Source of the DNA: a virus
IMG/VR virus record: IMGVR_UViG_3300006071_000030
DNA: 39,019 nucleotides
Reading direction: 5' to 3' (one strand)
The notes beneath the pieces are model-generated. The model saw only the letters and a list, made by a program, of their open reading frames with translations. It ran no database searches and was not told where the DNA came from. Shown here in pieces: positions 4,964 through 27,213 of the stretch; position 1 is the stretch's first letter, and the number at the start of each line of letters is the position of its first letter. Made by a program: the position numbers and the translations under genes.

Positions 4964-4975
4964 CAATTAGTCTTT

Positions 4976-5167: not shown

Positions 5168-8100
5168 TTAAGCTTGAGGTTCGTTCCAAGAGATACGACC
5201 CAAAAGCTGCACACCAACACCATTAAGGTTCTGGGCAACTAGAGTCAATGTATCTGGACCATCTGGGTAGATGTTCTTATCAGGTGTAGCGAGTGCTGCA
5301 ACAGTAGAAGTACCACCGTTGAGGACACTGTTACCAAGGTCGCGGACACCGGCAACGTTAACTTCCTGTGTGGTGTCTACAAAGAAACCACCGGTAACTT
5401 CACCAGCAGCCAAACCACTAGCAACCGTAACACCATTGGGTACAGAAGAGTAGTCAGCAATCTGGCTAAGCGATGAGTTCGGGCTGTTTGTACCAGCGAC
5501 GACGTTTGTCCACTGTGGCAATGTTCCACCATTGATAAGCTGTGGCACGCCATTCAAGTAAGCCTTGATAAGCACGTTACCGGCACCAACCCCCTGTGTA
5601 CCAGTAACCGTAACTGACACGTCAAGCGTCTGCAGCTGCAACTGAACTCGGTTAGCCAGTTCGTGTGATCCAAGGATAGAACTTGTTTGGCTGTTGTCAA
5701 CGCTAGGGGCAATACGAATCGACATCAGAGCCTTGGTCTGACCAGAAGCCAACGTAATTGGAGTAGTCTGACCATAGGTGAACAAAAGGTTGGCGTCAGG
5801 CGAGAAACCACCATCCATTGTTACTGCAGTACCCCAGTGGCTAAAGTATGGGCTGTGCGTAGGCATTGCCAACTCAACCGTAGTGGGTGCGGTAGCAGAG
5901 TATGAGAATGCAGTTCCTGCAAGTCCCATAGCCTGCACTGGAACCGTTGCGCTGGCGTTAGTCGATACAGAAGCATTGCTAAACGTAATGAAGTTACCGC
6001 TGATGGAAGCAACGTATGTGTTGTCGGGGAACAACGTCGGTGCAGTAACCTTAGAACCAATTGCAACACCGGTAATAGTTCCGCTACCAATTGGGCTACC
6101 AGACGTTAAAGAAAGCGTCAGGGAAGCAGGGGTAGCAATACCACGTGTCAAACCACCGAAGCTGCTAGCAGTTACAGTTGTGTAATTAACGTATTCAACA
6201 CCAGTCGTGGCGTTCTTGATCGCAAGAGTGCCTGATGCAGGGAATGCGCTATTGCCAGCTGGATTCAGCGTATTGTTAACATAGATTGTGGTGTCTGTTG
6301 CACCGATGCCAGATGTGGTAGTGGTAATTGGTGGGATCGTAGATGTTTCGTAACGACCCGGCAAGTTACCAGAGCGCATGTAGGCAGTGGTGTTGATGTT
6401 GTTGTTAGCCAGCTTGTGGCAGAACATGATGTTACCATCAGTAGTTCTCAGGCCCCAACGCACGAAACCAGCTCCGTACCACGAGTAGTCAAGGTACCAC
6501 ATCTGCATCTTGGTAAGGTCAAGCTTGTAACCGCTAGGTCCAGTTCCATCAAGTTTGTCGATGTTCCATTGCGACTGTGGCACACGGTTGTCGACAGTGG
6601 CTGTAACAGTCACGTAGTTGGCAGTAATACCACGGTAAGCAGGGCTAATGGTGATCTGCGTATCGCTAGCGATATCAGTAACACGGTAAGAGCTACCACG
6701 GATAACAATGTACTGACCAGGGGTCAGCTGCTTGCTAAAGATGGTTGGGAAATTGCCATCGGTTGCAGTAACCGTTGTGCTACCGTTTGTTACAGTTGCA
6801 CGACCAGCAACCTGCTTAATTGAGCTACGAAGAACAGCGTAAAGCTGCTGACCATCGTACTCGAAGAACATGCCATTTTCTTGGTTGAAAAGACCCATTC
6901 TCTGTACAGCACCGTACCAACCATTAACTGTGCAAATAAAGTTTGCAGGATAATCAGATGGTGAAGTATTGCCAAGAGTACCAGTAGCAGTAATAGTGAA
7001 CTGAGTGGCATTAAGAATGTTGGCAATAGGGTATGTGCCGTTGTAACCACTAGTAATTACACCAGCGATATTTACACTTGTACCAGGGGTAAGGTTGTGC
7101 TGTTCACGAGTTGTTACGGTGATCGTCGAACCAGGAGTTGTGCCAGTGGCAGAAATACCATCAACAGTGAATGCAGTGTTAAGGATCGTACCGGTGGCCA
7201 TTTCAAGACCCTTACCAGACTGGTAGTGGAAGTTACGACGGGTTTGACGAATAGCAGATTGGTGGTTGCTCAAGCTTTGTGGTCCGAACAGCACACCACC
7301 GTCAAATGGACGCTGAGCGAACAAAGATTGGTTGCGAGGAGTGATTGAACCACCGGTAGGAGTACCACCAGGTGCGCTCAATGCATAGTAGGTAAGACCG
7401 CTAGCACTGGTAATACCAGTTACATAGAAGTTACCATTCGCAGCAGATTGGCTAGTACCGCTAACGCTAATTTCATTACCAATGCTCAGGCCATGAGGAA
7501 CGGTTGTCGTTACAGTAATCAAGTTACTTGAGTTGGTAAACGTTGGTGTACCGCCGATAGCAGCACCGGTGTAGTACTGCTGCTGCCAGACCTGAGTCTT
7601 AAATGGGTCAAAGAAACCCGAAGTACCACTAGGAGTACCAAATGTGTTTACTGTCTTGGCAGAGTAAGTGAACGAGTTTGTGCCGCTTGTTTCTACGATG
7701 AAGTTACCGTTGGCTGGAGCGAAGAAAGCATCTTGCACAGAGAATGGTGTGCCTGTGGCAAGGCCGCCACCACTTGTAAGAACAGTCACTGTCTTGCTGT
7801 TGGCACTCATAGTCATACCAGTTACGGTAAGACCATTAGTAGCCAGCGAAATTGGTGGGTACATGTTATAACCAGCAGGGTGCCAGTTAGTTGTGCCGAG
7901 AGCTTCCCACTTAGAAGTCTGGTTACCATACTCAAAGTCGGTGTCAATCATCGACTGAGGTGTAGAGACGCGTTGCTTACCCACTGGGTCGTAAAGCTCT
8001 TCCACAGGAACTGTGCGTTGAGCATATTCATCAACTGTGATAGTGATCTTGTCGGTGGCAAGCATGCCAGATGTACCGCCGTTGAACACAACAGTAGTTA

Positions 8101-8332
8101 CACCCTTGCTAGAAGAAGTAGGAAGATTAGTAGTGCTAGAAACCTGGTTAGAAACTGTAGCAGTAAAACCAGCTAGAGTAAATACAGGGTCACCAATTTT
8201 AAACAATGTTACGCCACGTGTAGTGTTTACTACGGATACAAGACGTTCCTGTGGAATATACTGGTTGATTACGAGAGTTGAAGTACTCGGTGTAAATACG
8301 TAATTATCGTAGTACGATGTTGTTTGTGCCAT
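5168..8332 (-). CDS. large Thr/Ser/Gly/Asn-rich structural protein (1,054 aa); fibre/tailspike-like composition
   Basis: Uninterrupted 3.2-kb ORF with beta-rich low-complexity composition typical of fibres or receptor-binding proteins. No enzymatic motifs seen. Confidence 0.65.
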   Translation of the reverse strand: MAQTTSYYDNYVFTPSTSTLVINQYIPQERLVSVVNTTRGVTLFKIGDPVFTLAGFTATVSNQVSSTTNLPTSSSKGVTTVVFNGGTSGMLATDKITITVDEYAQRTVPVEELYDPVGKQRVSTPQSMIDTDFEYGNQTSKWEALGTTNWHPAGYNMYPPISLATNGLTVTGMTMSANSKTVTVLTSGGGLATGTPFSVQDAFFAPANGNFIVETSGTNSFTYSAKTVNTFGTPSGTSGFFDPFKTQVWQQQYYTGAAIGGTPTFTNSSNLITVTTTVPHGLSIGNEISVSGTSQSAANGNFYVTGITSASGLTYYALSAPGGTPTGGSITPRNQSLFAQRPFDGGVLFGPQSLSNHQSAIRQTRRNFHYQSGKGLEMATGTILNTAFTVDGISATGTTPGSTITVTTREQHNLTPGTSVNIAGVITSGYNGTYPIANILNATQFTITATGTLGNTSPSDYPANFICTVNGWYGAVQRMGLFNQENGMFFEYDGQQLYAVLRSSIKQVAGRATVTNGSTTVTATDGNFPTIFSKQLTPGQYIVIRGSSYRVTDIASDTQITISPAYRGITANYVTVTATVDNRVPQSQWNIDKLDGTGPSGYKLDLTKMQMWYLDYSWYGAGFVRWGLRTTDGNIMFCHKLANNNINTTAYMRSGNLPGRYETSTIPPITTTTSGIGATDTTIYVNNTLNPAGNSAFPASGTLAIKNATTGVEYVNYTTVTASSFGGLTRGIATPASLTLSLTSGSPIGSGTITGVAIGSKVTAPTLFPDNTYVASISGNFITFSNASVSTNASATVPVQAMGLAGTAFSYSATAPTTVELAMPTHSPYFSHWGTAVTMDGGFSPDANLLFTYGQTTPITLASGQTKALMSIRIAPSVDNSQTSSILGSHELANRVQLQLQTLDVSVTVTGTQGVGAGNVLIKAYLNGVPQLINGGTLPQWTNVVAGTNSPNSSLSQIADYSSVPNGVTVASGLAAGEVTGGFFVDTTQEVNVAGVRDLGNSVLNGGTSTVAALATPDKNIYPDGPDTLTLVAQNLNGVGVQLLGRISWNEPQA

Positions 8333-15741: not shown

Positions 15742-16524
15742 TTAACTTTCGTCTTCCTCGAGGTCATTAACATCGAACATTCTTTGTACCTTTGCCCCAG
15801 GTATATTAACTGTTGGTGTATTAGATGGTTGGTTACTTGGTGGCGTAGCTTCAGGAACTGTTTGAACCTTACGCTCTCTTCTCTTTGGCGTAGGTGTTTC
15901 ATCGACTGGTGTCGTTGATTCCTCAGAGTTATAACCCTTAACCTTTGACTTCGGCATCTTAATATCATGCTTTGGTGCTTCATCATCGGCAGATAAATAA
16001 GTAACACCTGTAGTTACTGTCTGATATGGTGTTGGTGTTGTAACTGGAGCATCGCTGTCTTGTATACCACGAGTTCTAGAACGTTCTTTGTTCCTAACAA
16101 CTCGTCTCTTCGTTTCGCTCTTCAAGCTACTTACAGCACGCTCAGTCTTGTTAATGTTCCTATTTTCAATGCGTTGATCTGTCTTACCAGATTCGCCTGG
16201 GTTCAGACCAGATGGACGCTGGTTAGCAACAGCATGTTCCATCTCAACGATTTCATTACCAACAAAAAGAGCATGGTTTGCGCATGTGTGAACCTGTGTC
16301 ACTCCAGATGGAGTGTAAATGAATTCACCATCTTTGTTCTCTGCTACGCCACCACGCTCGTAGCTCTTAGCACCTTTTGCTCTAGCTTTCAAAGCTTTCC
16401 TAGAAGAACGCTGGATGCTATCGCACGGGCCCAGAGAATCATATTTCTTCGCTTGTTCTGGAGCTAAGCTATCTCTAAGATCAGCTATGCAGCAACGCTT
16501 TCCCATATTAACATGCGTATCCAT
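15742..16524 (-). CDS. basic Thr/Pro-rich hypothetical protein (260 aa)
   Basis: ORF packed between neighbours with a 1-nt start/stop overlap at 16524. Confidence 0.55.
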   Translation of the reverse strand: MDTHVNMGKRCCIADLRDSLAPEQAKKYDSLGPCDSIQRSSRKALKARAKGAKSYERGGVAENKDGEFIYTPSGVTQVHTCANHALFVGNEIVEMEHAVANQRPSGLNPGESGKTDQRIENRNINKTERAVSSLKSETKRRVVRNKERSRTRGIQDSDAPVTTPTPYQTVTTGVTYLSADDEAPKHDIKMPKSKVKGYNSEESTTPVDETPTPKRRERKVQTVPEATPPSNQPSNTPTVNIPGAKVQRMFDVNDLEEDES

Positions 16525-17753
16525 TATTGATCTCCCTTGCAGCGGTAAGACTCAGCAATAAATTTGTCAACACGGTCAAATTTATTGCCAGGGTAGCTAT
16601 CTGGAAATGGAGCGGTTTTGATTTTAGCGATGCCACTCTTGTAATCATCACTTTGCTTAATCTTGGAGATGTTTTCTGGTGTTTCAAAGCCTCTTCTTTT
16701 TTCACAACCACAAAAGACGTGTGACTCTTGCTTAGTAGGCGTTGAGGGTGTAGACGCAGGAAGCAATGCTTGCTCTTCTCTTTTTTGCCTTATTTGCTTT
16801 ATTTCGTCGAAAGTGTCTTTGAAGGCACCTGCGTAACCAGTACCTTCTTGCTCTCCGCGTCTTACAAGCATCTTATTGATAGATTCAATGTTTTGACGAC
16901 CCTTCATTGCAAGCACTCGGTCTTGACCCTGCACACCGTGTTCGGGGATAGCAATGGTAGTCTTACGTGATGGTTTGCTAGCAGGCACTCTAGAAGTTCC
17001 AGAAGACGCGCTTGAGTCATCGTCTTCAAAGTCTTCTAACTCTGGTACGTGTTCTTCTGGGGTTTCATCAGTGGGAGCAGACTTTGTCTTATTGAACTTC
17101 TTATTGACAGGTGGCAATGCCTGGATAGGAATACCCTTATCTTCTTCCTGATCACCTTCATGTTCTTCTTCGTGAGAAACATTCTCTGGGATTTCTTCTT
17201 CAGCTTCTTCAGCTTCGTGAGGAGATTCTTCTTCTGGGTGTCCAGGAAGCGTTTCAGGATCGTAAGTGAACTTACCTACTTGTTCTTCTTCAGCTTTCTC
17301 TTCATCATTGGGTTCTGTATCAACTTGTTCTGGCTCTTTGTCTTCAGTTGCATCAGACCATTCTTCCTGCTTGCCTTCGTAGTCATCAGGATCGTAATCG
17401 TCGCTAGAAGCGTTGAAAAGCATTTTGAATGTGGCTGTCTTGCCCAAAGATGGCAATGCAATAATATTTGCTTTTTTCAAGAACTCAATAGATTCAGGAG
17501 AATATTTGATCGTGCCAGGCGTTTGGCCCTGCTTATTCAAAATGTCTTTAAGAGCGTCTTCTTCGCTGGTATAAAGCTTTTTAGGCGTTGAAACTGACGT
17601 AGGAGCAGTAGGGTGCTCTGTTCTCTTATATTTTCTAGGCCCTGGTTCTTTTTGCCCTGATTGTGTGTTATCTTTTCTCAAATACCACTCAGGGTCTCCA
17701 TTACTAATGGCACCCGTACCCGAAGAGTACTTAGAATTAAATGTTTTAGCCAT
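16524..17753 (-). CDS. highly acidic low-complexity protein (409 aa); scaffold-like or internal protein
   Basis: Long Glu/Asp-rich stretches (EEEQ, EEESPHEAEEAEEE). Confidence 0.6.
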   Translation of the reverse strand: MAKTFNSKYSSGTGAISNGDPEWYLRKDNTQSGQKEPGPRKYKRTEHPTAPTSVSTPKKLYTSEEDALKDILNKQGQTPGTIKYSPESIEFLKKANIIALPSLGKTATFKMLFNASSDDYDPDDYEGKQEEWSDATEDKEPEQVDTEPNDEEKAEEEQVGKFTYDPETLPGHPEEESPHEAEEAEEEIPENVSHEEEHEGDQEEDKGIPIQALPPVNKKFNKTKSAPTDETPEEHVPELEDFEDDDSSASSGTSRVPASKPSRKTTIAIPEHGVQGQDRVLAMKGRQNIESINKMLVRRGEQEGTGYAGAFKDTFDEIKQIRQKREEQALLPASTPSTPTKQESHVFCGCEKRRGFETPENISKIKQSDDYKSGIAKIKTAPFPDSYPGNKFDRVDKFIAESYRCKGDQ

Positions 17754-18389: not shown

Positions 18390-18481
18390 CGTGTTACTCC
18401 TTATACTGTTCCCTTAGGAACGCTGGACAGTAGGCAATATATGCCTAATACCTGTTATAAGATAGAGCATGTTTTAAATGG

Positions 18482-18562
18482 TCGATGGGGAGAGATTCGA
18501 ACTCCCGTACCCGAAGGATCTGGTTTACAGCCAGACGCGATTGGCCACTCCGCCACCCATCG
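18482..18562 (-). tRNA. tRNA-Tyr (GTA), long variable arm, no encoded CCA
   Basis: Folded by hand: acceptor CGATGGG/CCCATCG, D-arm GCGG/TCGC, anticodon stem TCTGG/CCAGA with loop CTGTAAA, a 12-nt variable arm, and T-arm GGGAG-TTCGAAT-CTCTC. Confidence 0.75.
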
Positions 18563-18567
18563 ATTTG

Positions 18568-18638
18568 CTGAGGGAGAAGGACTCGAACCTTCAACAAAAG
18601 CTCCAAAGGCTCCCGTGTTGCCATTACACCATCCCTCA
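18568..18638 (-). tRNA. tRNA-Gln (TTG)
   Basis: Acceptor TGAGGGA/TCCCTCA, T-arm GAAGG-TTCGAGT-CCTTC, anticodon loop CTTTGGA. The anticodon stem has two G-U pairs. Confidence 0.6.
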
Positions 18639-18660
18639 ATGTTTATTGCATGGCATGCAG

Positions 18661-18747
18661 CGGAATGAGTAGGATTCGAACCTACGGAGGCTTTGATACC
18701 TCGCCGGTTTAGCAAACCGGTGCTTTCGACCACTCAGCCATCATTCC
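18661..18747 (-). tRNA. tRNA-Ser (GCT), long variable arm
   Basis: Acceptor GGAATGA/TCATTCC, anticodon stem CCGGT/ACCGG with loop TTGCTAA, long variable arm, T-arm GTAGG-TTCGAAT-CCTAC. Confidence 0.75.
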
Positions 18748-18752
18748 TTATG

Positions 18753-18824
18753 CTCCCAGGGTAGGGATCGAACCTACGACCGAGCGATTAACAGTCGCTT
18801 GCTCTGCCGCTGAGCTACCTGGGA
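18753..18824 (-). tRNA. tRNA-Asn (GTT)
   Basis: Acceptor TCCCAGG/CCTGGGA, D-arm GCTC/GAGC, anticodon stem AGCGA/TCGCT with loop CTGTTAA, T-arm GTAGG-TTCGATC-CCTAC. Confidence 0.75.
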
Positions 18825-18832
18825 TTGTAAAA

Positions 18833-19192
18833 CTAGTCTCCTTTGACCACTCTGATACTATCATAGTCGAAGTGTTGGGTAGAGAACTCAAATACGCGTG
18901 AATTCTCTAGACCAATGATTCTGTGACGTAAACCGACAGGTACGTGGAAAAGGTCTCCCGCATTAAGCACCTTTTCCTGTGCGAGCTCGATATCGTCTGT
19001 CTCACCGTAAAGTACGATGACCTTACCGTTCTCTACGTAGAAGGTTTCGTCCTTGATGTTGTGATAATGGTAAGAAAGCTTCTTACCCTTATTCATGTGC
19101 AAGATCTTGGCGCAGTACTTCTCAGAGTTACAAAGAATCTCTTCATAACCCCAGCCCTTTTCTACAAATTCCTTATTCAAAGAAGTCATCAC
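18833..19192 (-). CDS. cupin-domain protein (119 aa); candidate sugar(-phosphate) isomerase/epimerase
   Basis: Small cupin core (GWGYEEIL ... HYH ... FYVENG ... HVPVGLRH) with a typical metal-binding His pattern. Sits at the end of the sugar operon. Confidence 0.45.
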   Translation of the reverse strand: MMTSLNKEFVEKGWGYEEILCNSEKYCAKILHMNKGKKLSYHYHNIKDETFYVENGKVIVLYGETDDIELAQEKVLNAGDLFHVPVGLRHRIIGLENSRVFEFSTQHFDYDSIRVVKGD

Positions 19193-19490
19193 TGTTTATT
19201 CCTTTGTCATCGATGTAAAAATCAGCAGAAGGTTTACCCATGATTAGATGATGGTACTTACAACCCCATTGCTTAAGCTGACGCTCCGTAATGTCACGGA
19301 AAAGTATTTCTACAAGCTTTGGGTCATTATTTGTCCTATGCATACCTCGAGCCGTAAAATAAACGACTGTATGACCCTCTGAATAAAGCTTGTTTATCTG
19401 ATCAATACGTTCTTGAACAGGCAGTGCATTTTCATACTTACCATCAGTAAGTGTGCAGATGGTGCCATCAATATCTACAACGTATCTCAT
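19173..19490 (-). CDS. HAD-superfamily phosphatase (GmhB-like heptose bisphosphate phosphatase candidate)
   Basis: HAD motif I VDIDGT, motif II Thr in FTAR, motif III GKP, motif IV YIDDKG. Only 105 aa. Confidence 0.55.
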   Translation of the reverse strand: MRYVVDIDGTICTLTDGKYENALPVQERIDQINKLYSEGHTVVYFTARGMHRTNNDPKLVEILFRDITERQLKQWGCKYHHLIMGKPSADFYIDDKGINSDDFFE

Positions 19491-19876
19491 CGTTCTAAGA
19501 TCCTAGTGGTTGAATAAGGCTCAAGTCTAGTGAAATAATCAATCTTCTTTGCGTACTCTTTACCAGGGAAGTCCTTGCCGAACCAGTCAGCACCAGCAAA
19601 CCAGATATCTGGGGATAAAGCCTTGACGATATTGATCAGTTCTTCATCTGAGTCAAAGAGTAGCGTTTGATCAACATACTTAAAAGCATCAATAACAAAT
19701 TGTCTATCATACTGATTATGGAAAGGTCGATCAGAGCCTTTCTTCTCTTTTACACGCCTATCAGTGTCGATAGCAACAGTTAGGGTGTCACCATGCGATT
19801 TGGCATGTTTTAGAAGTGCTACATGGCCTTTATGAATGACATCAAACGTGCCAGTTAAAAAGATCTTCTTATCCAT
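19487..19876 (-). CDS. cytidylyl/adenylyltransferase-like nucleotidyltransferase (HldC / RfaE domain II-like)
   Basis: N-terminal GTFDVIHKGH (H-x-G-H nucleotidyltransferase motif). 129 aa. Confidence 0.6.
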   Translation of the reverse strand: MDKKIFLTGTFDVIHKGHVALLKHAKSHGDTLTVAIDTDRRVKEKKGSDRPFHNQYDRQFVIDAFKYVDQTLLFDSDEELINIVKALSPDIWFAGADWFGKDFPGKEYAKKIDYFTRLEPYSTTRILER

Positions 19877-20654
19877 TTAGATACTCGTCTACAGTCTTGA
19901 ATTTGTAGTCACCCCACTCTGGCTTAGCACAGGTATACGTCTGATACTTGCCAACCAGGTGTTCTGGGAACGGTACATATTCTATAGCACCGTTATAAAG
20001 GTATGCAACTGACTCAGCAACGTCTTTAAAGCTAATTGGGTTGCTTGTGCCAAGATCATAGATGCCAGAAGGCTTATCGTTGTTGAGAACGATTTCAACA
20101 AGGTCATCAACGCAGACAAAGTCTCTCTTGAAGTTCTCTGAGCCTTCAAACAGCTTTAGAGAGCCTGTCTCTTTAATTTGGGCTGAGAACTTGCTAACAG
20201 GGCTTGCCTGGTCACCTTTACGGCCTTCATAATCACCATATACGTTGAAGTAACGAAAACCTTGGATAAGAGAGAACTTATCCATGTTATCTTGCACCCA
20301 GTAGTCAACTGTCAGCTTTGACATAGCATATTGGTTCTTAGGGTTAGGAATACCCTGCAAATCGCCATAAACGGAAGCAGAAGAAGCATACTTAACAGGG
20401 ATACCAAAAGAGATAGCAATCTCAAAGAGGTCTATCGTGTATTCAACGTTCCAGGCATACAGTTTCTTAACATCCTTTTCAGTAGTGCTGGAGATAGCAC
20501 CCTGGTGCAAAATAAGATCAACTTTATCCCATTCTTTAAAGTTATAAAGGAAGTGATAAGCATCTTCTTTATCAATAGGCAATAAAGGCTTGTTAGAAAG
20601 AACCTTGCTAAAGTTTCTACCAATGAAACCTTCTGAACCAGTCAAAATGATCAT
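19869..20654 (-). CDS. NAD-dependent sugar epimerase, extended SDR (HldD / ADP-L-glycero-D-manno-heptose-6-epimerase-like)
   Basis: N-terminal MIILTGSEGFIGRNF (GxxGxxG Rossmann fold). Catalytic YxxxK in NQYAMSK. Confidence 0.6.
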   Translation of the reverse strand: MIILTGSEGFIGRNFSKVLSNKPLLPIDKEDAYHFLYNFKEWDKVDLILHQGAISSTTEKDVKKLYAWNVEYTIDLFEIAISFGIPVKYASSASVYGDLQGIPNPKNQYAMSKLTVDYWVQDNMDKFSLIQGFRYFNVYGDYEGRKGDQASPVSKFSAQIKETGSLKLFEGSENFKRDFVCVDDLVEIVLNNDKPSGIYDLGTSNPISFKDVAESVAYLYNGAIEYVPFPEHLVGKYQTYTCAKPEWGDYKFKTVDEYLNG

Positions 20655-21379
20655 ATCGTTGTAACCCCTCTATGCTTTACCACTTCAGAAGCGCATTTAT
20701 TAGCATACTCAATGCTTTTGATGATATTGCCGCAATTAGCATACTCAACGACAAGTGCTGCCATGAAAGCATCGCCTGCACCTGAGGAGTCCTTGACTTC
20801 TACCTTGTCAACGTGATAACGGTTACCGTTGTACTCGCAACCATCTCCACCCATCGTATGGATGATCTTCTTCTTGAAAGATTCTGTAACTTTGGGGTCA
20901 GAGTTCTTGTATTCGTAATCGTTGATCTTAATGATGAAAGCCTTTTTGGCCCACTTCCCTAGCTTCTTCTTAGTATCGAGGAATACACGTGGGTGTGACT
21001 TACAAATATCTTTGATGTCGTCTTCTGTTAGATAACCTTTGTTATAGTCAGAAATAACTACAATGTCATATTCGCTGTAATCGATATCGTTTTTAAACCT
21101 ACCATAGTTTGGCTCTGTATCGACTCTAATAAACATGTGGTTAGTTGCTTCATGAACGTATCTTGTCTTAGTAATAGACCGCCAATTATGGTTGGTTCTA
21201 ATGTTGACGTCATCCGCAAACTTTTTGATGTTGTTTAACACGTTCAGTGCCATACCAGGATTCTTTACCTCATGCATGGCGTTTAGCACAGGTACTGGAA
21301 TATCGGGTGCAAGACGCATTGCATCACAATAAACAAATACGTCCATGCAACTTTCACCTATTACTAAAATTTTAGTCAT
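20651..21379 (-). CDS. PfkB-family sugar kinase (HldA / RfaE domain I-like heptose-7-phosphate kinase candidate)
   Basis: C-terminal GAGDAF (the PfkB DxxGAGD signature). N-terminal ILVIGESCMDV glycine-rich motif. Confidence 0.6.
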   Translation of the reverse strand: MTKILVIGESCMDVFVYCDAMRLAPDIPVPVLNAMHEVKNPGMALNVLNNIKKFADDVNIRTNHNWRSITKTRYVHEATNHMFIRVDTEPNYGRFKNDIDYSEYDIVVISDYNKGYLTEDDIKDICKSHPRVFLDTKKKLGKWAKKAFIIKINDYEYKNSDPKVTESFKKKIIHTMGGDGCEYNGNRYHVDKVEVKDSSGAGDAFMAALVVEYANCGNIIKSIEYANKCASEVVKHRGVTTI

Positions 21380-21861
21380 TAGAAAATAGGTAAGCCATCT
21401 TTTTTAAGATAGATCATGGCAGGGGCCTTGATCAAATATGCATCAATCATAGCCTTTTCTGTAGCTTCACGGCTAGTAGGAAAGTAACTTTGTACATTTT
21501 TGAATACCGTAGCTAAGCGTTCAGGGTTGAGCGGACGGTGAGTAGGACCATGCGTTGGATAATCAGAATAACCAACCAACATAACAGGCAAGTTTTGTTC
21601 ATCAATATCAATTTTGACTTGCTCATAAGGTCGTTCGATTACAAAAGGAGTAATTGAATAAACTACTGGACGAAACCCATCGATAGCAAGACCAGCAGCC
21701 AAGCTAGTAATTGATTGCTCAGTGAGACCAAGGTTGAAGAACCGTTCAGGAAACTTTTCTTTGAACTCAGTCATCTCTTGCTCTACGTCGCCTGTAATCA
21801 ATACGATGCGATCATCTTTTTCAGCGAGCTTAACGATTGTCTTACCGAATGCTACTCTCAT
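21379..21861 (-). CDS. transketolase C-terminal subunit (pyrimidine-binding domain only)
   Basis: MRVAFGKTIVKLAEKDDRIVLITGDV ... FFNLGLTEQS matches the N-terminus of transketolase C-terminal subunits. Start taken as ATG 21861, just after the upstream stop (ORF track starts at 21918). Confidence 0.6.
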   Translation of the reverse strand: MRVAFGKTIVKLAEKDDRIVLITGDVEQEMTEFKEKFPERFFNLGLTEQSITSLAAGLAIDGFRPVVYSITPFVIERPYEQVKIDIDEQNLPVMLVGYSDYPTHGPTHRPLNPERLATVFKNVQSYFPTSREATEKAMIDAYLIKAPAMIYLKKDGLPIF

Positions 21862-22610
21862 GCCAGTTCCTCCAATGCTTGCTTTTCTAGGTCTCCACCT
21901 AGCCAATTTGAGTGCCATTTAGGTTGGTTTTCCATAAAGCTTACACCCTTACCCTTGATTGTGTTTGCAACAATCAAAGTAGGAGATACTGCAGCTTCAA
22001 AATTGATGTTGATAAGATCATCGTTGTGACCATCAATTTCATGCACTTCCCAACCAGCAGCTTGTGCAGCAGCAATAAGAGCACGGTCTACGGGCATGAT
22101 TTCGTCAACGTACCCAGAACCCTGGATCTTATTGTTATCTACGATAACAACCAAGTTATTGAGCTTTAGGCGTGCAGCAATAAGAATTGATTCCCAAGTA
22201 GTGCCTTCTTGGCATTCGCCATCACCCATAAGAACAAACACTTTTTCATTTGAGTTGTTGAGCTTACGAGCAAGAGCCATCCCCATAGACACTGGGAAAC
22301 CATGTCCCATGCTACCTGCGGTGCAATAAATGCCATTCTCAGGCTCATAATGAGGGTGACCTTCAAGGGTGGGGTTATAACCTTGTTCACGCAAAAGCAC
22401 ATAGTATGACCAGCAGCTGTGCCCCTTGCTCAAAACAAAACGGTCATTCTTTCCCATGATTTTATCAAAAAGATTGATCAGAATTTCAGTACAACTAAAG
22501 CTACCGCCATAATGATAACCACCATTAGCTTTGCTAATCTCAATAGCATCTCTGCGTACTTGCTTTGATCTTTCGTTTAACATTAATTGGCCTTTCCAGA
22601 TAGATTGCAA
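21858..22610 (-). CDS. transketolase N-terminal subunit (TPP-binding)
   Basis: GGYHYGGSFSCTEIL, KGH, GSMGHGFPVSMGMALA and VLMGDGECQEG are classical TPP-binding motifs. An alternative ATG at 22583 would make a TAATG overlap with the upstream gene. Confidence 0.65.
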   Translation of the reverse strand: MQSIWKGQLMLNERSKQVRRDAIEISKANGGYHYGGSFSCTEILINLFDKIMGKNDRFVLSKGHSCWSYYVLLREQGYNPTLEGHPHYEPENGIYCTAGSMGHGFPVSMGMALARKLNNSNEKVFVLMGDGECQEGTTWESILIAARLKLNNLVVIVDNNKIQGSGYVDEIMPVDRALIAAAQAAGWEVHEIDGHNDDLININFEAAVSPTLIVANTIKGKGVSFMENQPKWHSNWLGGDLEKQALEELA

Positions 22611-23149
22611 ATTAGAATTTTTTTATCTTCATCGTAATCAAACTCACATGCGTTGTCATACTCTTTAATATAGTTAATTAATTTTTGCTTTGTAGTTTCT
22701 TCATCACCAAAATCAAGAGCCATACCACTAGAAGAATCACCAAGCAGATCAATATCATCAATCAGAATAGTGTGAGCTTTGCGAGGGCGAGCAAAGATTA
22801 CGTTTAACTCATCCATCAAAGGAACTGCTGGGTGTTCTACATTCGGGTCACCGCTTGCGCTGTGAGCATCGAGCCAGAAATCTAGCGGGACATCATAAGG
22901 CTCAATCATCTCTGATAATTTTTCTTTTGAGTCGCCTAGAAATAACACTACTCTGTTGTCATTATCAAACTTGCTACAACAATTATCGTAGAAAGATTTA
23001 TTGAACTCAACAGTTATAACCTTTTCATAACCAAGACCAAGTGCTATTTCTACTGTATAGCCATGTTGTGTACCAGTTTCTACAAAGATATTATTTCTCT
23101 TATATTTAGAGAACATCAATGTCATTGCTTCTGTGCTTCTATCTGCCAT
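22583..23149 (-). CDS. class I SAM-dependent methyltransferase (FkbM / sugar O-methyltransferase-like)
   Basis: Motif I FVETGTQHGYTV (VxxGxxxG). 188 aa. Acidic C-terminus. Confidence 0.45.
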   Translation of the reverse strand: MADRSTEAMTLMFSKYKRNNIFVETGTQHGYTVEIALGLGYEKVITVEFNKSFYDNCCSKFDNDNRVVLFLGDSKEKLSEMIEPYDVPLDFWLDAHSASGDPNVEHPAVPLMDELNVIFARPRKAHTILIDDIDLLGDSSSGMALDFGDEETTKQKLINYIKEYDNACEFDYDEDKKILICNLSGKAN

Positions 23150-24159
23150 TATTCCATCTCAATCATTATTCTACCGGCAATGCCGCTTCTAAGTGTATCA
23201 AATGCTTCATTTACTTCGTCAAGTTTATATCTGTGAGTAATGAACTCATCAATATAAAGCTTCCCAGCCTTCTCGAGCTTAACATAACGCAAGATATCGT
23301 TAGAAGGATCTGTCTTGCCACCCTGGGTAGCCTTGATACTAAGACCATTACCATTAAAGAAGCTGAGTGCATTGACGATTTCAAGTGACGTTCCTGGCTT
23401 GGGTTGACCCACAAGAATCATTCGGCCATTGTTAGATAGATAGCCAAAGCTCTTCTTAATAACATCGACGTTTCCAGTCGTATCAATAACAACGTCTACT
23501 TTACCTTCAAACTCTGTTTCTGAAGTGTTGTAAAAGAAGTCAGCACCAGCCATGAATGAAAGGTCGCGCTTGCTTTCATTGTTGTCAATAGCAACAATTG
23601 GGCTAAGGCTACGCATAGCTGCACCTTGGATGAGGTTAAGCCCTACACCACCCGTACCGACAACTGCAACGCTTTCACCAAACTTAAAATCGCACTCATT
23701 GTCGATAATACCTAGTGCGGTAGTCAAACTGCATCCAAGGAGCGCAGCGAGGTCATTAGGGGTCTCTGAAGGGACTGTAGTGAGTCGGTTCTCTGACACG
23801 ATAGCCCACTGAGCAAGAGTATTTACCTTGCCACTACTAAAAGTCTTGTCACCAAGGGTGTACTGAGGAAACGCAGCATCGATACCAGTACCTGGTCGCC
23901 AGTGCATAACAACCTTGTCACCTACTTTAACAGTGGTTACTCCAGGGCCAATGTCTTCTACAATGCCACAACCCTCATGACCCATAAGGTGAGGAAGGAA
24001 CTTGCCATTACCCTTGTTGCCATTGATCTCGTGTAGTTGTGAGCCACAGATACCGCTGACAAGGACACGAACCTGTACTTGACCCACTTGGAGCTCAGTA
24101 AGGCCAACATCTTCAATAGAAAGAGGAGCGTTGAGCTCTTTGAGAACGGCAGCCTTCAT
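23149..24159 (-). CDS. Zn-dependent medium-chain dehydrogenase/reductase (ADH / sugar dehydrogenase)
   Basis: GICGSQLHE and GHEGCGIVEDIG (catalytic Zn site). Rossmann motif VVGTGGVGLNLIQG. Confidence 0.7.
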   Translation of the reverse strand: MKAAVLKELNAPLSIEDVGLTELQVGQVQVRVLVSGICGSQLHEINGNKGNGKFLPHLMGHEGCGIVEDIGPGVTTVKVGDKVVMHWRPGTGIDAAFPQYTLGDKTFSSGKVNTLAQWAIVSENRLTTVPSETPNDLAALLGCSLTTALGIIDNECDFKFGESVAVVGTGGVGLNLIQGAAMRSLSPIVAIDNNESKRDLSFMAGADFFYNTSETEFEGKVDVVIDTTGNVDVIKKSFGYLSNNGRMILVGQPKPGTSLEIVNALSFFNGNGLSIKATQGGKTDPSNDILRYVKLEKAGKLYIDEFITHRYKLDEVNEAFDTLRSGIAGRIMIEME

Positions 24160-25007
24160 TAGATCAACTCGTACAATGACTTGACGGTGCTGAACTTCTT
24201 ATTGATGTCAAATGTTCTAGCCATATCACGGTAAGGAACATTTGTATTAACTCGGTCAAGCAGAGAGATGAACTCACCAACCGTTTCCATGCTCCACTTG
24301 TTAACAGCAGCAATGAAAGGTGCATTTGGTACGCCAACAACTGCCTTACAACGCTTAGCTAGCTTACCAATATCAACCAAAGTCAAATTGTGATCTTGAG
24401 TGCTGCGGTAGCCTTCCACCTTGACAGTAGTAATGACTTTCTTACCCTCATCGGTCAAGTATTGCAGCAATGCAGCAAAGTTCTTGTCTTGTTCTTCTCT
24501 AGACATAAGAAGGACTGGGCTAACAGGGTATCCATTAATTACTAGGCAGTCAAACTCTTCGCCATCGAGTACATCCTCGGCAAAGCACTCTTCATCAAGT
24601 ACAACATCATCAATAGAGTTGAATGGCTTGTTTAGGTGAGGCAAGTTGTACTGGTGCAGGTAGTTACCCATTTCATATACCCACATTGAGTAGCTGCTAA
24701 GGGTGTTGTCCTGCTTCGAGTAGTGGATAGGATCATAAATGCTATCGCCAAGCAAAGCGTGGCACCACAAGTCAATTGAATAACGTGGGTGTGGTGCATC
24801 AATAAAGCTTACGTTTGTATCTTGGATCAGCTCAACAAGTTGAGAACGATACTGAGCAGGAATTAAGATGTTGCATTTAATTTGTTTGTTGTTTTCACAC
24901 AACTTCTTCAAAACATGCAATGCAACAATGCAATCACCATGGCCTTTATCACAATGGAAGTAAAGGTCGTTAGTCATTAACATATCTAAGTTAATTGATT
25001 TATTCAT
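24159..25007 (-). CDS. putative glycosyltransferase, GT9 (heptosyltransferase)-like
   Basis: N-terminal GDCIVALHVLKKL resembles GT9 s-MGDvlhtlP, and C-terminal LVDIGKLAKRCKAVVGVPNAPFIAAV resembles GT9 sL.e.a.l..aklvVs.DtG..HlaAA. Start taken as ATG 25007 (AAGG Shine-Dalgarno); the track start at 25043 would overlap tRNA-Asp. Confidence 0.4.
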   Translation of the reverse strand: MNKSINLDMLMTNDLYFHCDKGHGDCIVALHVLKKLCENNKQIKCNILIPAQYRSQLVELIQDTNVSFIDAPHPRYSIDLWCHALLGDSIYDPIHYSKQDNTLSSYSMWVYEMGNYLHQYNLPHLNKPFNSIDDVVLDEECFAEDVLDGEEFDCLVINGYPVSPVLLMSREEQDKNFAALLQYLTDEGKKVITTVKVEGYRSTQDHNLTLVDIGKLAKRCKAVVGVPNAPFIAAVNKWSMETVGEFISLLDRVNTNVPYRDMARTFDINKKFSTVKSLYELI

Positions 25008-25009
25008 AG

Positions 25010-25083
25010 CGACCTTGATGGGACTCGAACCCACGACCCCCACCGTGACAGGGTGGTGCTCTAACCAACTGAGCTACAAGGCC
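25010..25083 (-). tRNA. tRNA-Asp (GTC)
   Basis: Acceptor GGCCTTG/CAAGGTC (one G-U pair), D-arm GCTC/GAGC, anticodon stem CCACC/GGTGG with loop CTGTCAC, T-arm GTGGG-TTCGAGT-CCCAT. Confidence 0.7.
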
Positions 25084-25092
25084 TAAACTGCG

Positions 25093-25407
25093 TTACTTCT
25101 TAGGCGTAGCCTTCTTGACAGCAGGAGCCTTCTTAGCAACGGGTGCTGGCGTAGGTTCTACGACAACAGCAGCAGTCTTAGGCTGAGGAAGGGTACCAAG
25201 CAACCAACCAAGATTGGGGTACTTCTTCTCCAAGGCAGTGATAGCCGTGTAGTACAGGCCAGAAGCGACAGGTGTCAACGCAGCGAACGTACCGGTGTTG
25301 AACTTACCCCACTTGGTTGCACCCCAAGCGATAAGAGCACCAACGATAGCAGCAACAAAGGCACGGCCTATAGCTCTAGTTGTTGTTGTGTTAATTGGAT
25401 CTGACAT
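25093..25407 (-). CDS. small membrane protein with Lys/Ala/Pro-rich C-terminal tail (104 aa)
   Basis: Two hydrophobic segments, then PTPAPVAKKAPAVKKATPKK. AGGAG Shine-Dalgarno upstream. Confidence 0.55.
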   Translation of the reverse strand: MSDPINTTTTRAIGRAFVAAIVGALIAWGATKWGKFNTGTFAALTPVASGLYYTAITALEKKYPNLGWLLGTLPQPKTAAVVVEPTPAPVAKKAPAVKKATPKK

Positions 25408-25606: not shown

Positions 25607-25619
25607 AATCAAGCTATTA

Positions 25620-26168
25620 TCAATTATTTGGCAATTCTGTCAAAATATTGAAAGAAGCAGCAAGATCAGCTGGCATCATTTGGTAAGGGTTGCGGTCGAA
25701 TACAATGCCGCCTGCCCACAAGGATTGTGCTACTACGGCACTACAAATCATGGTGTTGCTATTTGTGAACTGCATCTTAATACCAGTCAGCAACTCCAAG
25801 GCAATACTCAAGATGGTTAGGAAACCATACTTATCCTTAATGAAGCTCTTGCAAGCAGAAACCGTTTGATCACGGCTTTGCTTGTTAAGCTTTGTTGTAA
25901 CGTAGTAATACTCTACGTCTTTGTATTCACTAATGTTGCTTACGATAACACCACGGCCAACAGCCTCAACGATGGTTCCACCTTCATCGATGATCATAGC
26001 TGCATGGTTCCAATGAGCAAAAGGCTTCATCTTTCCGTGGTAACGGATGAATTGACCAAAACGAATGAACTTAGCTAGAATGCCCTTAGATGAAACCAGG
26101 ATGAAGTCACCTGGTACATACTTTGTTGGGTCTTGTCCTGCGGCATATACCTTATATGTCGTAGTCAT
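25620..26168 (-). CDS. hypothetical protein; possible permuted papain-fold (NlpC/P60-LRAT-like) hydrolase/acyltransferase
   Basis: His-His region (HWNHAAMIID) precedes a candidate Cys (NTMICSAV), the order seen in LRAT-like permuted NlpC/P60. Motif-level call only. Confidence 0.3.
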   Translation of the reverse strand: MTTTYKVYAAGQDPTKYVPGDFILVSSKGILAKFIRFGQFIRYHGKMKPFAHWNHAAMIIDEGGTIVEAVGRGVIVSNISEYKDVEYYYVTTKLNKQSRDQTVSACKSFIKDKYGFLTILSIALELLTGIKMQFTNSNTMICSAVVAQSLWAGGIVFDRNPYQMMPADLAASFNILTELPNN

Positions 26169-27213
26169 CTACATCACCTTCATATCCATATGTTTCATTC
26201 AAACCAAAGTGATTACTGGCGAACCAGCCCTCTACTGCACCACCATCTGGCACAGACTGACCACCACCACGTGCTTGTGGCAGGTCAACAGCACTTTCAA
26301 CGTCTTCTTCGATTGGCTCATCTACAGTTCTGCTACCAACGGCAATGTTCCCGAATGGAGCAGCTGAAGCATCGCTTTTGACTCGCTCAGTACCCAAATC
26401 TGTACCTTGTTCGTTCCCAGGTTGCGTTACGTACCAGCTAGCACCACTAATTGGAGCTCCACCACCAATACCAGTAGCTGGAGTGGCTTCTTGGTGAAGC
26501 CCACCGTCTCGAGGAGCATCATTGACACTCTGGAACTCGTTTGGTCGGTTAAGAGTGAAAGCACCACCAGTATCGCTGTCAATAGCAACGATCTTGAAAC
26601 CCATAAACAGTTTTGGGTGATTCTTAGCTGGTGCACCACCGTCTAGAGGGGTAGCTCCATCACTATCCATGTCAGTAATGTCACTTGGGGTGTCTTCGTC
26701 AACAGGTTGGCTTTCTTCAGCACCTGGACCATAGACAGTTGGCAAGATTTCACTGGTTGGGTCAGCGTAGTGTACGCTAGCATGCCAACCAAGCGATCCG
26801 TCTTCATTAGGACCGATCGTGTATTGTGGATCGTGGTCTAGTGGTACGTTAAGCTTCTCATCAACACCAGAATCACTGCCGTGTGGCCCCCAGGCGCCTA
26901 CGGTGCCCTCATTCTCTTTGCCAGCCTTAGGTAAACGGATGATTTGTATCTTACGGATGGCATCAGCAGCAGTTACGCTCTCTACGAACTGGTTCCAGAG
27001 AATCTTGTCTCTTGCCATCGTAGCTGAAAGGTTATCACCAAGTTGAAGAGATAGGATAAACCCATCATCCATCAAAGTAACTTCAGGATCAGCAAAGTAT
27101 CCTTCGAACTGCGACATGATTGAACGAACGACTGCGTCCTTGTTATATTCTGAGACATAACGGTTAAAGACGCAGCGAAAGTTCTTGCGCTGAGGAGTAT
27201 TTGCAGATGCCAT
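26152..27213 (-). CDS. acidic Gly/Asp/Pro-rich hypothetical protein (353 aa)
   Basis: Long ORF; disordered, acidic C-terminal half. Confidence 0.55.
   Translation of the reverse strand: MASANTPQRKNFRCVFNRYVSEYNKDAVVRSIMSQFEGYFADPEVTLMDDGFILSLQLGDNLSATMARDKILWNQFVESVTAADAIRKIQIIRLPKAGKENEGTVGAWGPHGSDSGVDEKLNVPLDHDPQYTIGPNEDGSLGWHASVHYADPTSEILPTVYGPGAEESQPVDEDTPSDITDMDSDGATPLDGGAPAKNHPKLFMGFKIVAIDSDTGGAFTLNRPNEFQSVNDAPRDGGLHQEATPATGIGGGAPISGASWYVTQPGNEQGTDLGTERVKSDASAAPFGNIAVGSRTVDEPIEEDVESAVDLPQARGGGQSVPDGGAVEGWFASNHFGLNETYGYEGDVDDYDI

Follow-up and report, generated by a model that had tools for sequence, protein, structure and literature searches.

The ten-gene block on the minus strand of this viral record (IMGVR_UViG_3300006071_000030 in IMG/VR; the window, that is the whole stretch analysed, is 39,019 nucleotides long) raises the question of which sugar it makes, and whether its split transketolase feeds that pathway or acts on its product. 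Judging from sequence comparison, we propose that the operon probably makes a nucleotide-activated glycero-manno-heptose without relying on the host and passes it on to an acceptor, with a trio of alcohol dehydrogenase (ADH), ThDP enzyme and methyltransferase-like protein decorating the sugar.

The ten ORFs occupy positions 18833-25007, abutting or overlapping, between tRNA genes on the same strand: the first gene, encoding a GT9-like protein, has its start codon 2-3 nt after the end of tRNA-Asp (GTC; 25009..25083), and an array of tRNA-Asn, tRNA-Ser, tRNA-Gln and tRNA-Tyr (18479..18824) lies directly downstream. There is no intergenic DNA between the ten genes, each junction overlapping by 1 to ~20 nt, as in TAATG at 22583 and ATGA at 21861/21858. 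Upstream of the block, the best match to a promoter is TTGACA-16-GATAAT (11/12) at 25616..25643 on the minus strand, a possible operon promoter; promoter-like sites around the block number 17 against 15.2 expected, which is not above chance. The earlier note, made from the letters alone, had described a phage-borne ten-gene module. All of its ORFs are present, the motifs it quoted recur in the translations (MGHEGCG in the ADH, SGAGDAF in the kinase, YAMSK in the epimerase, FDVIHKGH in the nucleotidyltransferase and DIDGT in the HAD protein), and a phage origin is confirmed by genes elsewhere in the window for a cluster-C-actinophage-like portal, a large virion protein and a prohead-protease-like product. 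Most likely the ten genes form one co-translated operon, and the phage is an uncultured one from an aquatic setting; the relevance of ADP-heptose to innate immunity, raised in the same note, does not apply to such a phage. Module GC is 5 points below that of the flanks, suggesting horizontal acquisition. Profile searches matched eight of the ten proteins to families, and the 188-aa and 282-aa proteins have no match in Pfam, NCBIfam or PHROGs.

It is proposed that the core of the module consists of five steps, one-to-one with the bacterial ADP-L-glycero-beta-D-manno-heptose route. Homology is strongest for the last, in which C-6″ would be epimerised by an HldD-type ADP-heptose 6-epimerase homologue (261 aa, 19869..20654). 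This protein matches E. coli HldD (1eq2) at E 2.7e-45, with 39% identity across HldD residues 1-297 and the four catalytic residues HldD S116, Y140, K144 and K178 all kept, and heptose_epim (TIGR02197) at 2e-60, under the cut-off. Its beta2-beta3 connector is ~24 aa shorter than that of HldD, a deletion common to all phage homologues; in HldD the missing segment contributes NADP 2'-phosphate contacts, so that its loss counts against the assignment. Phosphorylation of O-1, the HldA step, would by homology fall to a compact PfkB kinase (242 aa, 20651..21379) resembling HldA and HldE domain I, which matches rfaE_dom_I at 1.5e-27 (cut-off 345 bits), HldA (4e84) at 4e-7, residues 5-303 of E. coli HldE at 3.5e-7 with 23% identity, and phrog_8133. 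Also by homology, the HldC step to an NDP-heptose, probably ADP-heptose, is assigned to an HxGH nucleotidyltransferase of cytidylyltransferase fold (129 aa, 19487..19876) resembling HldC and HldE domain II. It is 31% identical to E. coli HldE domain II and matches rfaE_dom_II (1.2e-28) better than g3p_cytidyltrns (1.4e-20); in the PDB, TagD (1.6e-16) is marginally closer than HldC (5x9q, 5.7e-15). TagD is a CTP:glycerol-3-phosphate transferase. Every core enzyme scores below its curated NCBIfam equivalog cut-off, and all three of these enzymes score best in heptose families, ahead of such families as ribokinase, PPAT and GalE: the kinase at 96.6 bits against 35.9, the nucleotidyltransferase at 99.8 against 73.7/41, and the epimerase at 204.6 against 41.7.

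For the two remaining core steps the module has unusual candidates. The GmhB step, removal of the 7-phosphate, may be carried out by a minimal capless HAD phosphatase (105 aa, 19173..19490) of the EcbF/BcbF family (TIGR01689, 6e-12), which matches 9iqw at 4.6e-13 and also 1xpj and conserves the DxDxT, TAR, GKP and IDDK motifs. Identification of this protein as GmhB itself was rejected, since it has no similarity to E. coli GmhB, and no GmhB homologue occurs in the window; we propose a functional analogue. The SIS-type isomerase GmhA, which the earlier note had named as the one unseen step of the pathway, is indeed found neither in the window nor in any of the 11 heptose loci from IMG/VR. A small metal-binding cupin (118 aa, 18833..19189; Cupin_2 1e-7), suggested there as its replacement, accompanies the pathway in 10 of the 11 full heptose loci and resembles a type-II phosphomannose isomerase (PMI): it matches MannoseP_isomer at 0.0019, GMP_PMI at 5.8e-4 and residues 368-444 of the ManC PMI domain in hhalign (E 0.0035), its KGWGYE, HYH..E and RH motifs are invariant, and it has a full HxH-E-H metal site. 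PMI chemistry is that of GmhA, ketose to manno-aldose. [quoted passage not shown]

Transfer of the sugar is assigned to a putative heptosyltransferase (282 aa, 24159..25007). Fold comparison shows it to be a GT-B enzyme, with none but GT9 heptosyltransferases among its nearest folds; it fails the PF01075 profile and has no counterpart of WaaC D261. Its small family, in which an hLGD motif is invariant, has members down to 36% identity in the same kind of locus. The earlier note had staked its heptose assignment on the families of the three core enzymes and on this protein, listed there at 283 aa, being a glycosyltransferase; the best heptose-family scores and the GT9-type fold uphold it on both points. 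Candidate acceptors are a virion protein and a glycoconjugate of the host surface.

The other four genes appear to form a separable, exchangeable sub-module. The Zn-dependent MDR ADH (336 aa, 23149..24159; ADH_N, ADH_zinc_N) is class I/III-like, has no structural-zinc lobe and is 90% identical to its orthologue in locus L006 (dN/dS 0.048); adjoining the N subunit of the transketolase in 40 of 50 viral loci, it is the constant partner of the ThDP enzyme. The 188-aa protein (22583..23149) had been called an FkbM-like methyltransferase, an assignment that failed. It is a remote class-I SAM-methyltransferase-like protein, whose family profile matches the YrrM O-methyltransferase (5zw3) across SAM motifs I and II (7e-5), with Methyltransf_24 touched by 8 of 50 relatives; the family recurs in S-SM2, S-T4, L014, L063 and L070-72. 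The split transketolase-like enzyme is genuinely encoded by two genes. Its N (PP-domain) subunit TK-N (241 aa, 21858..22583; Transketolase_N 3e-28), which has over 7900 homologues in environmental data, begins with the ATG at 22583 and not with the TTG at 22610, the same call as in more than 100 homologues; the Pyr-domain-only C subunit TK-C (160 aa, 21379..21861; Transket_pyr 1e-18) starts at the ATG at 21861, not at 21918, and is coupled to the TK-N stop through the ATGA overlap. We propose that the sub-module most likely remodels the sugar instead of feeding the pathway. The ADH would interconvert a primary alcohol and an aldehyde, or reduce a ketone, the ThDP enzyme would transfer a two-carbon unit, and the product may then be methylated. 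As the ThDP enzyme here is of transketolase type, that unit would be glycolaldehyde, not acetyl.

The earlier note had instead let the transketolase make sedoheptulose-7-phosphate. Such a supply enzyme, boosting this precursor as an AMG like cyanophage talC while the ADH and methyltransferase modify the finished heptose, is in our judgement unlikely. TK-N is clearly of the transketolase family (split-transketolase N component 6yak at 9e-45; NF004559 at 182 bits), the ThDP-binding and catalytic His residues are conserved (TK-N keeps H26, H66, H100, D155, N185 and H261, and TK-C the R358 equivalent, E411 and H473), and the PfkB kinase gene comes right after TK-C at 20 of the 50 viral loci, which would suit precursor supply too. 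However, the canonical acceptor and phosphate-binding positions of TK-C are altered family-wide (H461 and R520 lost, D469 replaced by His, the S385 loop shortened), and the C-terminal (TKC) domain is absent across the whole family. Moreover, sister phages that are collinear on both sides, with an ADH 90% identical, carry a fused pyruvate-dehydrogenase-E1-like enzyme in the exact transketolase slot, the cassette being swapped at boundaries 23149 and 21366. In those phages the unit would derive from pyruvate, as hydroxyethyl or acetyl; it is conceivable that the E1-like enzyme there carries out a transketolase-like reaction. The five-gene core does without any ThDP enzyme gene in P-SSM2 and S-SSM7, and the transketolase travels with the ADH even in the 28 of 50 loci that have no heptose genes nearby.

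A product other than heptose is a more doubtful proposition still: an octose or higher-carbon ketose-derived sugar (cf. the lincosamide GDP-octose), built by the ThDP enzyme and activated by the kinase, phosphatase, nucleotidyltransferase and epimerase set, or a CDP-linked polyol phosphate. The sub-equivalog scores of the core and the nearness of the nucleotidyltransferase to TagD as much as to HldC would be in keeping with this, as would the occurrence of the ADH, ThDP enzyme and kinase without nucleotidyltransferase or epimerase in L019-21, L037 and L041 and the membership of the HAD protein in a capsule-locus family with no assigned substrate. Against it, the epimerase, which still has the HldD-specific second base K178, is unambiguously related to HldD, the core occurs without a ThDP enzyme in the two cyanophages named above, and the nearest glycosyltransferase folds all use ADP-heptose. 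That the block is non-functional cargo or a decaying acquisition, as in the stuffer-DNA possibility raised for cyanophage LPS clusters by Sullivan et al. 2010 (PMC3037559), might be read from its lower GC and from the truncation of all enzymes relative to cellular homologues. The trimmed lengths, however, are family traits conserved in many phages, every protein has intact catalytic motifs, translational coupling is perfect, and dN/dS against L006 is 0.04-0.10 in all comparable genes, the mark of purifying selection; by this selection analysis the cargo explanation is effectively refuted.

The proposed decorated-heptose pathway can be compared with known systems. Its resemblance to the bacterial route with the GT9 enzymes WaaC and WaaF extends from the five chemical steps to homologous PfkB kinase, cytidylyltransferase-fold nucleotidyltransferase and extended SDR epimerase (S/Y/K plus K178), and to the GT9 fold and N-terminal hLGD motif of the transferase. 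Unlike that route, the phage has a PMI-like cupin for the SIS isomerase, a mini-HAD for GmhB, kinase and nucleotidyltransferase as separate proteins where HldE joins them, a transferase outside PF01075 with no D261 equivalent, shortened enzymes below the equivalog thresholds throughout, and the additional ADH, ThDP and methyltransferase-like genes.

The module is less novel than had been implied: annotations of its core in cyanomyoviruses date back to 2005-2010 (PMC1079782, PMC3037559, PMC7378029), with the nucleotidyltransferase, kinase, HAD, cupin and epimerase as T4-GC 304-308 (PMC3037559). The five genes occur together in P-SSM2, S-SSM7, S-SM2 and P-TIM68, as well as in the 11 IMG/VR loci. 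The cyanomyovirus "LPS gene clusters", including that of SynMITS9220M01, have orthologues of all five at 35-63% identity and adjoin tRNA genes (PMC3037559, PMC1079782, PMC7378029), and the gene order of S-SM2 and P-TIM68, like that of the present module, runs ADH, ThDP enzyme, kinase, epimerase, nucleotidyltransferase. The database names "phosphoheptose isomerase" (HAD) and "cysteine dioxygenase" (cupin) in cyanophages look like mis-annotations. In contrast to the present phage with its cluster-C-actinophage-like portal, the cyanomyoviruses are T4-like, their ThDP enzyme is fused and E1-like, and their clusters, besides being larger, hold many other glycosyltransferases and no GT9-like gene.

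For the sub-module there is precedent in the two-carbon branching of nucleotide sugars by E1-like or YerE ThDP enzymes, with a ketoreductase acting next (PMC4753412, PMC9306805). The systems with AviB1/AviB2, Pau11/Pau12 (both E1 alpha/beta-like pairs) or YerE, and with the ketoreductase Pau7, likewise combine a ThDP enzyme with an NAD(P)-dependent reductase in a sugar cluster, and the sister phages carry an E1 alpha/beta-like enzyme beside the ADH; in the present phage, however, the ThDP enzyme is of transketolase type, the reductase is an MDR Zn-ADH and not an AKR, and there is no dehydratase forming a 4-keto sugar. The split-chain transketolase of Carboxydothermus hydrogenoformans (6yak/6yaj) shares the two-gene architecture and is the best structural-database match of both subunits (9e-45 and 1.8e-16), whereas the phage C subunit is 160 aa long against 341 aa, lacks the C-terminal domain and is altered at the equivalents of E. 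coli H461, D469, R520 and the S385 loop. Finally, the TibC/AAH protein O-heptosyltransferases have the GT9 fold and modify autotransporters; TibC, iron-binding and dodecameric, is larger than the phage enzyme, and the group provides a precedent for GT9-fold heptose transfer to protein rather than to LPS.

The ten genes of the block lie on the minus strand and encode, from 25007 to 18833, a GT9-like glycosyltransferase (GT), an ADH, a 188-aa methyltransferase-like protein, the two subunits of a split transketolase-like ThDP enzyme (TK-N and TK-C), a kinase, an epimerase, a nucleotidyltransferase, a HAD protein and a cupin; the block was confirmed, and every motif quoted for it in the earlier note was found in the translations. 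All junctions are overlapping or abutting. One base is common to each of the GT/ADH, ADH/methyltransferase-like, methyltransferase-like/TK-N and TK-C/kinase junctions, ATGA-type overlaps join TK-N to TK-C, the kinase to the epimerase and the nucleotidyltransferase to the HAD gene, and the overlap is 8 nt at epimerase/nucleotidyltransferase and about 17 nt at HAD/cupin. Two of the proposed gene starts had to be moved: TK-N (241 aa) begins with the ATG at 22583, the same start being called in more than 100 homologues, and TK-C (160 aa) begins with the ATG at 21861, overlapping the TK-N stop codon. The tRNAs described at both ends of the block are present on the same strand, tRNA-Asp directly upstream and tRNA-Asn, Ser, Gln and Tyr directly downstream. 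These five tRNAs are all that Rfam gives for the window, with no TPP riboswitch or other RNA element, and promoter and terminator scans gave no excess above chance. The GC content is 41.3% in the module and 46.4% in the flanks on both sides, which suggests that the module was acquired horizontally as a cassette.

The 3ˊ end of tRNA-Asp (25009-25083) is 2-3 nt from the ATG of the GT gene (25007), and the sole Shine-Dalgarno-like AAGG before this gene is within the acceptor stem of that tRNA. Translation of the first gene may therefore need tRNA processing (a near-leaderless mRNA) or an unprocessed precursor. A gene at 25093-25407, placed after the best promoter-like site and before tRNA-Asp, encodes a protein of 104 aa whose core is hydrophobic and whose tail is rich in lysine (KKAPAVKKATPKK); this protein shows 88% identity to its counterpart in the sister phage L006. 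Two long ORFs of 409 and 353 aa (16524-17753 and 26152-27213) flank the module region; their products are highly acidic, apparently of low sequence complexity and without a family match.

The predicted epimerase is unmistakably HldD-like in sequence. It matches E. coli HldD (1eq2) with an E value of 2.7e-45 and 39% identity over HldD residues 1-297, has the extended-SDR fold with a TGSEGFIG motif, and in the alignment to 1eq2 keeps S116, Y140, K144 and the second base K178, the last being HldD-specific. Its score of 204.6 bits is below the TIGR02197 equivalog threshold (274.6 bits) because about 24 residues after beta2, matching HldD 28-51 (the beta2-alphaB segment), are missing in this protein and in all phage homologues. 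The kinase is a PfkB protein (4e-17) with an SGAGDAF motif whose best PDB match is HldA (4e84). It scores 96.6 bits against rfaE_dom_I and 35.9 bits against ribokinase, the former below the equivalog level of 345 bits, and is 23% identical to domain I of E. coli HldE in a length of 242 aa versus about 315 aa. The placement of both enzymes in heptose families, for the kinase rather than among the ribokinases, thus held. For the nucleotidyltransferase the two databases rank the families differently: rfaE_dom_II ranks above the TagD type in NCBIfam (99.8 bits, under the 181.5-bit cut-off, versus 73.7 bits), whereas in the PDB TagD (1coz, 63.5 bits) ranks above HldC (5x9q, 58.5 bits). Since TagD is as close as HldC in the PDB, the product may be ADP- or CDP-linked.

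The 105-aa HAD protein possesses all four HAD catalytic motifs. Its best family is TIGR01689 (EcbF/BcbF, "capsule biosynthesis phosphatase") and its best PDB matches are 9iqw and 1xpj, while tblastn gave no match to E. coli GmhB. Membership in the GmhB family is ruled out on these grounds; by its generic motifs the protein is a predicted phosphatase other than GmhB, and it may replace GmhB functionally. As the earlier note had stated, GmhA is the unseen step: neither the 39-kb window nor 62 of the 63 related phage loci contain a match to E. coli GmhA, the SIS-type enzyme. In the cupin, the HxH..E..H metal site is invariant and accompanied by a KGWGYE motif of the N-terminal PWGxY type and by FEFSTxH..DSxR..GD motifs; the protein's sole functional likeness is to type-II phosphomannose isomerase. 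It matches PF01050 at 0.0019 (18.8 bits, cut-off 23.6) and TIGR01479 at 5.8e-4, and hhalign aligns it motif for motif with ManC residues 368-444 (E 0.0035, probability 9%); its profile gave no alignment to GmhA. Phosphomannose isomerase converts a 2-ketose phosphate to a manno-aldose phosphate, which is exactly the chemistry of GmhA, one carbon shorter. We infer that the cupin acts as a heptose-7-phosphate isomerase in place of GmhA.

The one phage locus of the 63 with a true SIS-type GmhA is L062 (IMG/VR 3300028920_001945, at about 4175 and about 5689; 33% identity to the E. coli enzyme, 2e-11). It also has a mini-HAD gene and a distant TK pair, and it has no cupin, a hint that the cupin and GmhA stand in for each other. 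In public annotations of S-SM2 (L001), P-TIM68 (L002), P-SSM2 (L003) and two further loci (L004 and L005), the mini-HAD is named "phosphoheptose isomerase" and the cupin "cysteine dioxygenase", labels repeated in the PHROG names of phrog_1238 and phrog_7851. Both appear to be misannotations, which mask the probable isomerase.

Nucleotidyltransferase, kinase, HAD, cupin and epimerase genes (T4-GC 304-308) occur together in the cyanomyoviruses P-SSM2, S-SSM7, S-SM2 and P-TIM68, and 10 of the 11 IMG/VR loci holding kinase, nucleotidyltransferase and epimerase also have the cupin (GmhA in none of the 11). The strongest argument for a self-contained NDP-heptose pathway is the match in number between its five necessary steps and the five conserved genes; the route would include two non-homologous replacements, the cupin for GmhA and the mini-HAD for GmhB. 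The possibility that such clusters are "stuffer DNA" was raised in 2010 (PMC3037559). It was set aside here: dN/dS between the window and L006 is 0.04-0.10 for GT, ADH, kinase, epimerase and HAD (the comparison is limited to these five, dS being saturated for the other genes), catalytic motifs are intact throughout the block, and the reduced protein sizes are conserved family traits.

The 282-aa GT gave no match in any profile library and has only seven close relatives, with which AlphaFold reached a pLDDT of 55. An exhaustive profile search revealed 289 remote relatives, and the confident model (pLDDT 93.8, pTM 0.92) was obtained with 70 relatives from this search. The top 17 PDB matches of that model in Foldseek are all GT9 enzymes (WaaC, WaaF, TibC and 3tov among them), and the invariant G24-D25 belongs to an hLGD motif, which in the alignment falls on the N-terminal catalytic motif of GT9 enzymes. 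Family members of 78-36% identity, together with one in a T4-like contig (L012), are all encoded just upstream of ADH in a similar locus. At the sequence level PF01075 does not match the window GT, only one of the 70 relatives reaching 0.007, and WaaC D261 of the C-terminal DTG motif is not conserved (WaaC VSVDTG aligns to GVPNAP). The earlier GT9 assignment thus stands for the predicted fold and the context and fails for sequence membership. For the 255-262-aa proteins encoded beside TK genes in two other phage loci (L024 and L029), also considered as GT9-like candidates, hhalign shows no relationship.

The best matches of TK-N and TK-C are the two chains of the split transketolase of C. hydrogenoformans, in agreement with the split enzyme first proposed. 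A frameshift or sequencing error behind the split is ruled out by the ATGA stop/start overlap, by the natural C-terminus of TK-N, conserved in more than 100 homologues, and by the same 160-aa length of TK-C in the loci L012-L015. The pair keeps the ThDP-binding GDG/N motif, the catalytic H26, H66, H100, H261 and H473 and the cofactor-activating E411; TK-C consists of the Pyr domain alone, the C-terminal domain being absent. At the acceptor site (R358, S385, H461, D469 and R520, E. coli numbering) only the equivalent of R358 is kept. Across the family H461 is replaced by Ser or Asp and R520 by Lys, Gln or Tyr, the S385 loop is shortened, and D469 is fixed as His (YPTHGPTH). Judged by these residues, TK-N/TK-C is a non-canonical transketolase. 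It is widespread, with more than 7900 close subunit homologues in metagenomes and 50 IMG/VR loci carrying TK-N, and relatives of the module are also present in several cultured cyanomyoviruses. Separate genes for the transketolase N-terminal part and B subunit have been reported in Micromonas virus MpV-SP1, a prasinovirus of eukaryotic algae (PMC5454428).

The earlier note had assumed that this transketolase makes sedoheptulose 7-phosphate (S7P) for the pathway. Such a simple supply role is argued against by the exchange of the TK genes in sister phages, by their frequent presence without heptose genes, and by the five-gene core of P-SSM2 and S-SSM7, in which there is no ThDP enzyme. Nucleotide identity between the window and the collinear sister phages (L006-L009 and one further contig) is 75-81% on either side of the swap, and protein identities are 90% for ADH, 85% for the epimerase, 77% for the kinase and 74% for the GT. 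Similarity is interrupted precisely from 23149 to 21366, where the window has the methyltransferase-like gene, TK-N and TK-C, and the sister phages have a 399-aa fused pyruvate dehydrogenase E1 alpha+beta-like enzyme (TIGR03182 3e-24; PRK09212 9e-20), a type also found in S-SM2, P-TIM68 and the loci L070/L071. Of the 50 IMG/VR loci with TK-N, 47 also carry TK-C and 40 carry ADH, and 28 have no heptose-type kinase, nucleotidyltransferase or epimerase within 8 kb. In L024 (2585-12685), ADH, TK-N and TK-C directly follow an HK97-like major capsid gene (DUF6260/Linocin_M18) and have as further company an SDR, a sulfotransferase and a methyltransferase of 555 aa, with the unassigned 255-262-aa proteins interleaved and no heptose genes; the same arrangement is seen in L022, L028/29 and L048-50. 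The 188-aa protein, first called FkbM-like, did not retain that name: PF05050 (Methyltransf_21) matches neither it nor any of 50 relatives, the weak matches being instead to Methyltransf_24, RrnaAD and YrrM. With a profile built from its family, similarity to O-methyltransferases of the YrrM/Methyltransf_24 type (7e-5) is confined to the SAM-binding motifs. Members of this family occur alongside either ThDP type, and a bacterial homologue in Moorena (L011) has sulfotransferases as neighbours and neither TK nor heptose genes nearby.

The window also encodes a portal (2582-4966), an adjacent 1054-aa virion protein (5168-8332) and a prohead-protease-like protein. The portal shares 39% identity with the portals of mycobacteriophage myoviruses of cluster C, and the virion protein shows 39% identity over 96% of its length to proteins of the cyanomyoviruses S-PM2 and S-RSM4, pointing to a mosaic origin of the structural genes. 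A T4-like cyanomyovirus, an idea raised by the sugar genes matching S-SM2 and P-TIM68 best, is ruled out by the cluster-C-like portal, and an actinobacterial host was dropped because the structural genes are mosaic and the virion protein is cyanomyovirus-like. The phage is uncultured and, to judge from these genes, a mosaic, its portal and virion protein pointing different ways. Identical proteins are also present on a 131.9-kb contig, and the sole match in a DNA-level search for close phage relatives was a tRNA fragment. All sister phages (L006, at 6345-6827, L007, L008, L009 and L070) conserve a ferritin-like gene (PF00210) that lies upstream of the module at a distance of a few kb.

TibC is a GT9-fold enzyme able to heptosylate proteins. 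As to DNA hypermodification, another target considered, the GT9 fold is, to our knowledge, unlike that of any known DNA glycosyltransferase. The module has no flippase or polymerase. Cyanobacterial LPS is without Kdo and heptose according to a review (PMC4390846), so that in a cyanobacterial host a self-contained pathway would be needed and the canonical GT9 acceptor would be gone. Virion glycosylation is documented for mycobacteriophages in work cited in PMC12619734. A cytoplasmic acceptor, a virion or host protein, is weakly favoured over LPS.

That phages encode heptose-pathway genes is already known: such genes near tRNAs were listed as "LPS genes", uncharacterised there, by Sullivan et al. 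(2005, 2010) and in PMC7378029. Our literature searches on phage ADP-heptose, transketolase with heptose or capsule, cupin heptose isomerase and virion glycosylation found no characterisation of the module. The present analysis adds the proposed mapping of five genes to five steps with its two replacements, the predicted GT9-like fold for an orphan GT family, a widespread, apparently non-canonical TK-like enzyme and its clean exchange for an E1-like one next to a conserved ADH, and the occurrence of the module in a non-T4 mosaic phage. The lead as a whole is sound and testable, and not surprising. If it is true, many aquatic phages hold a miniaturised, host-independent route to activated heptose, in which the cupin and the mini-HAD may represent new enzyme activities. 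Given the reported lack of heptose and Kdo in cyanobacterial LPS, the name "LPS gene", in use for 20 years, may be mistaken; whether the true target is the virion, a host surface protein or a polysaccharide matters for how phages and hosts recognise each other in the ocean.

The swap and the separability of the ADH and ThDP pair, together with precedents in nucleotide-sugar pathways, suggest by analogy an exchangeable sugar-remodelling cassette, which would point to sugar chemistry new for viruses. In its fullest form, a novel and widespread viral cassette that extends or branches a sugar by two carbons, fed by the cupin and serving a GT9-like enzyme that glycosylates proteins, this proposal is a speculative one that we consider rather unlikely to hold in all its parts. 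ADH would make or reduce a carbonyl, and the ThDP enzyme would add a glycolaldehyde or hydroxyethyl unit, giving a nucleotide sugar new to science, derived from heptose and either branched or higher in carbon number. A non-homologous cupin-type heptose-7-phosphate isomerase would feed the pathway, and the minimal GT9-like enzyme would glycosylate virion or host proteins in a host whose envelope has no heptose of its own. Among characterised systems, the logic nearest to the ADH and ThDP pair is that of the E1 alpha/beta-like proteins AviB1/B2 and Pau11/12, and of YerE, which join a two-carbon unit to nucleotide sugars in a ThDP-dependent reaction before a ketoreduction step (PMC4753412, PMC9306805).
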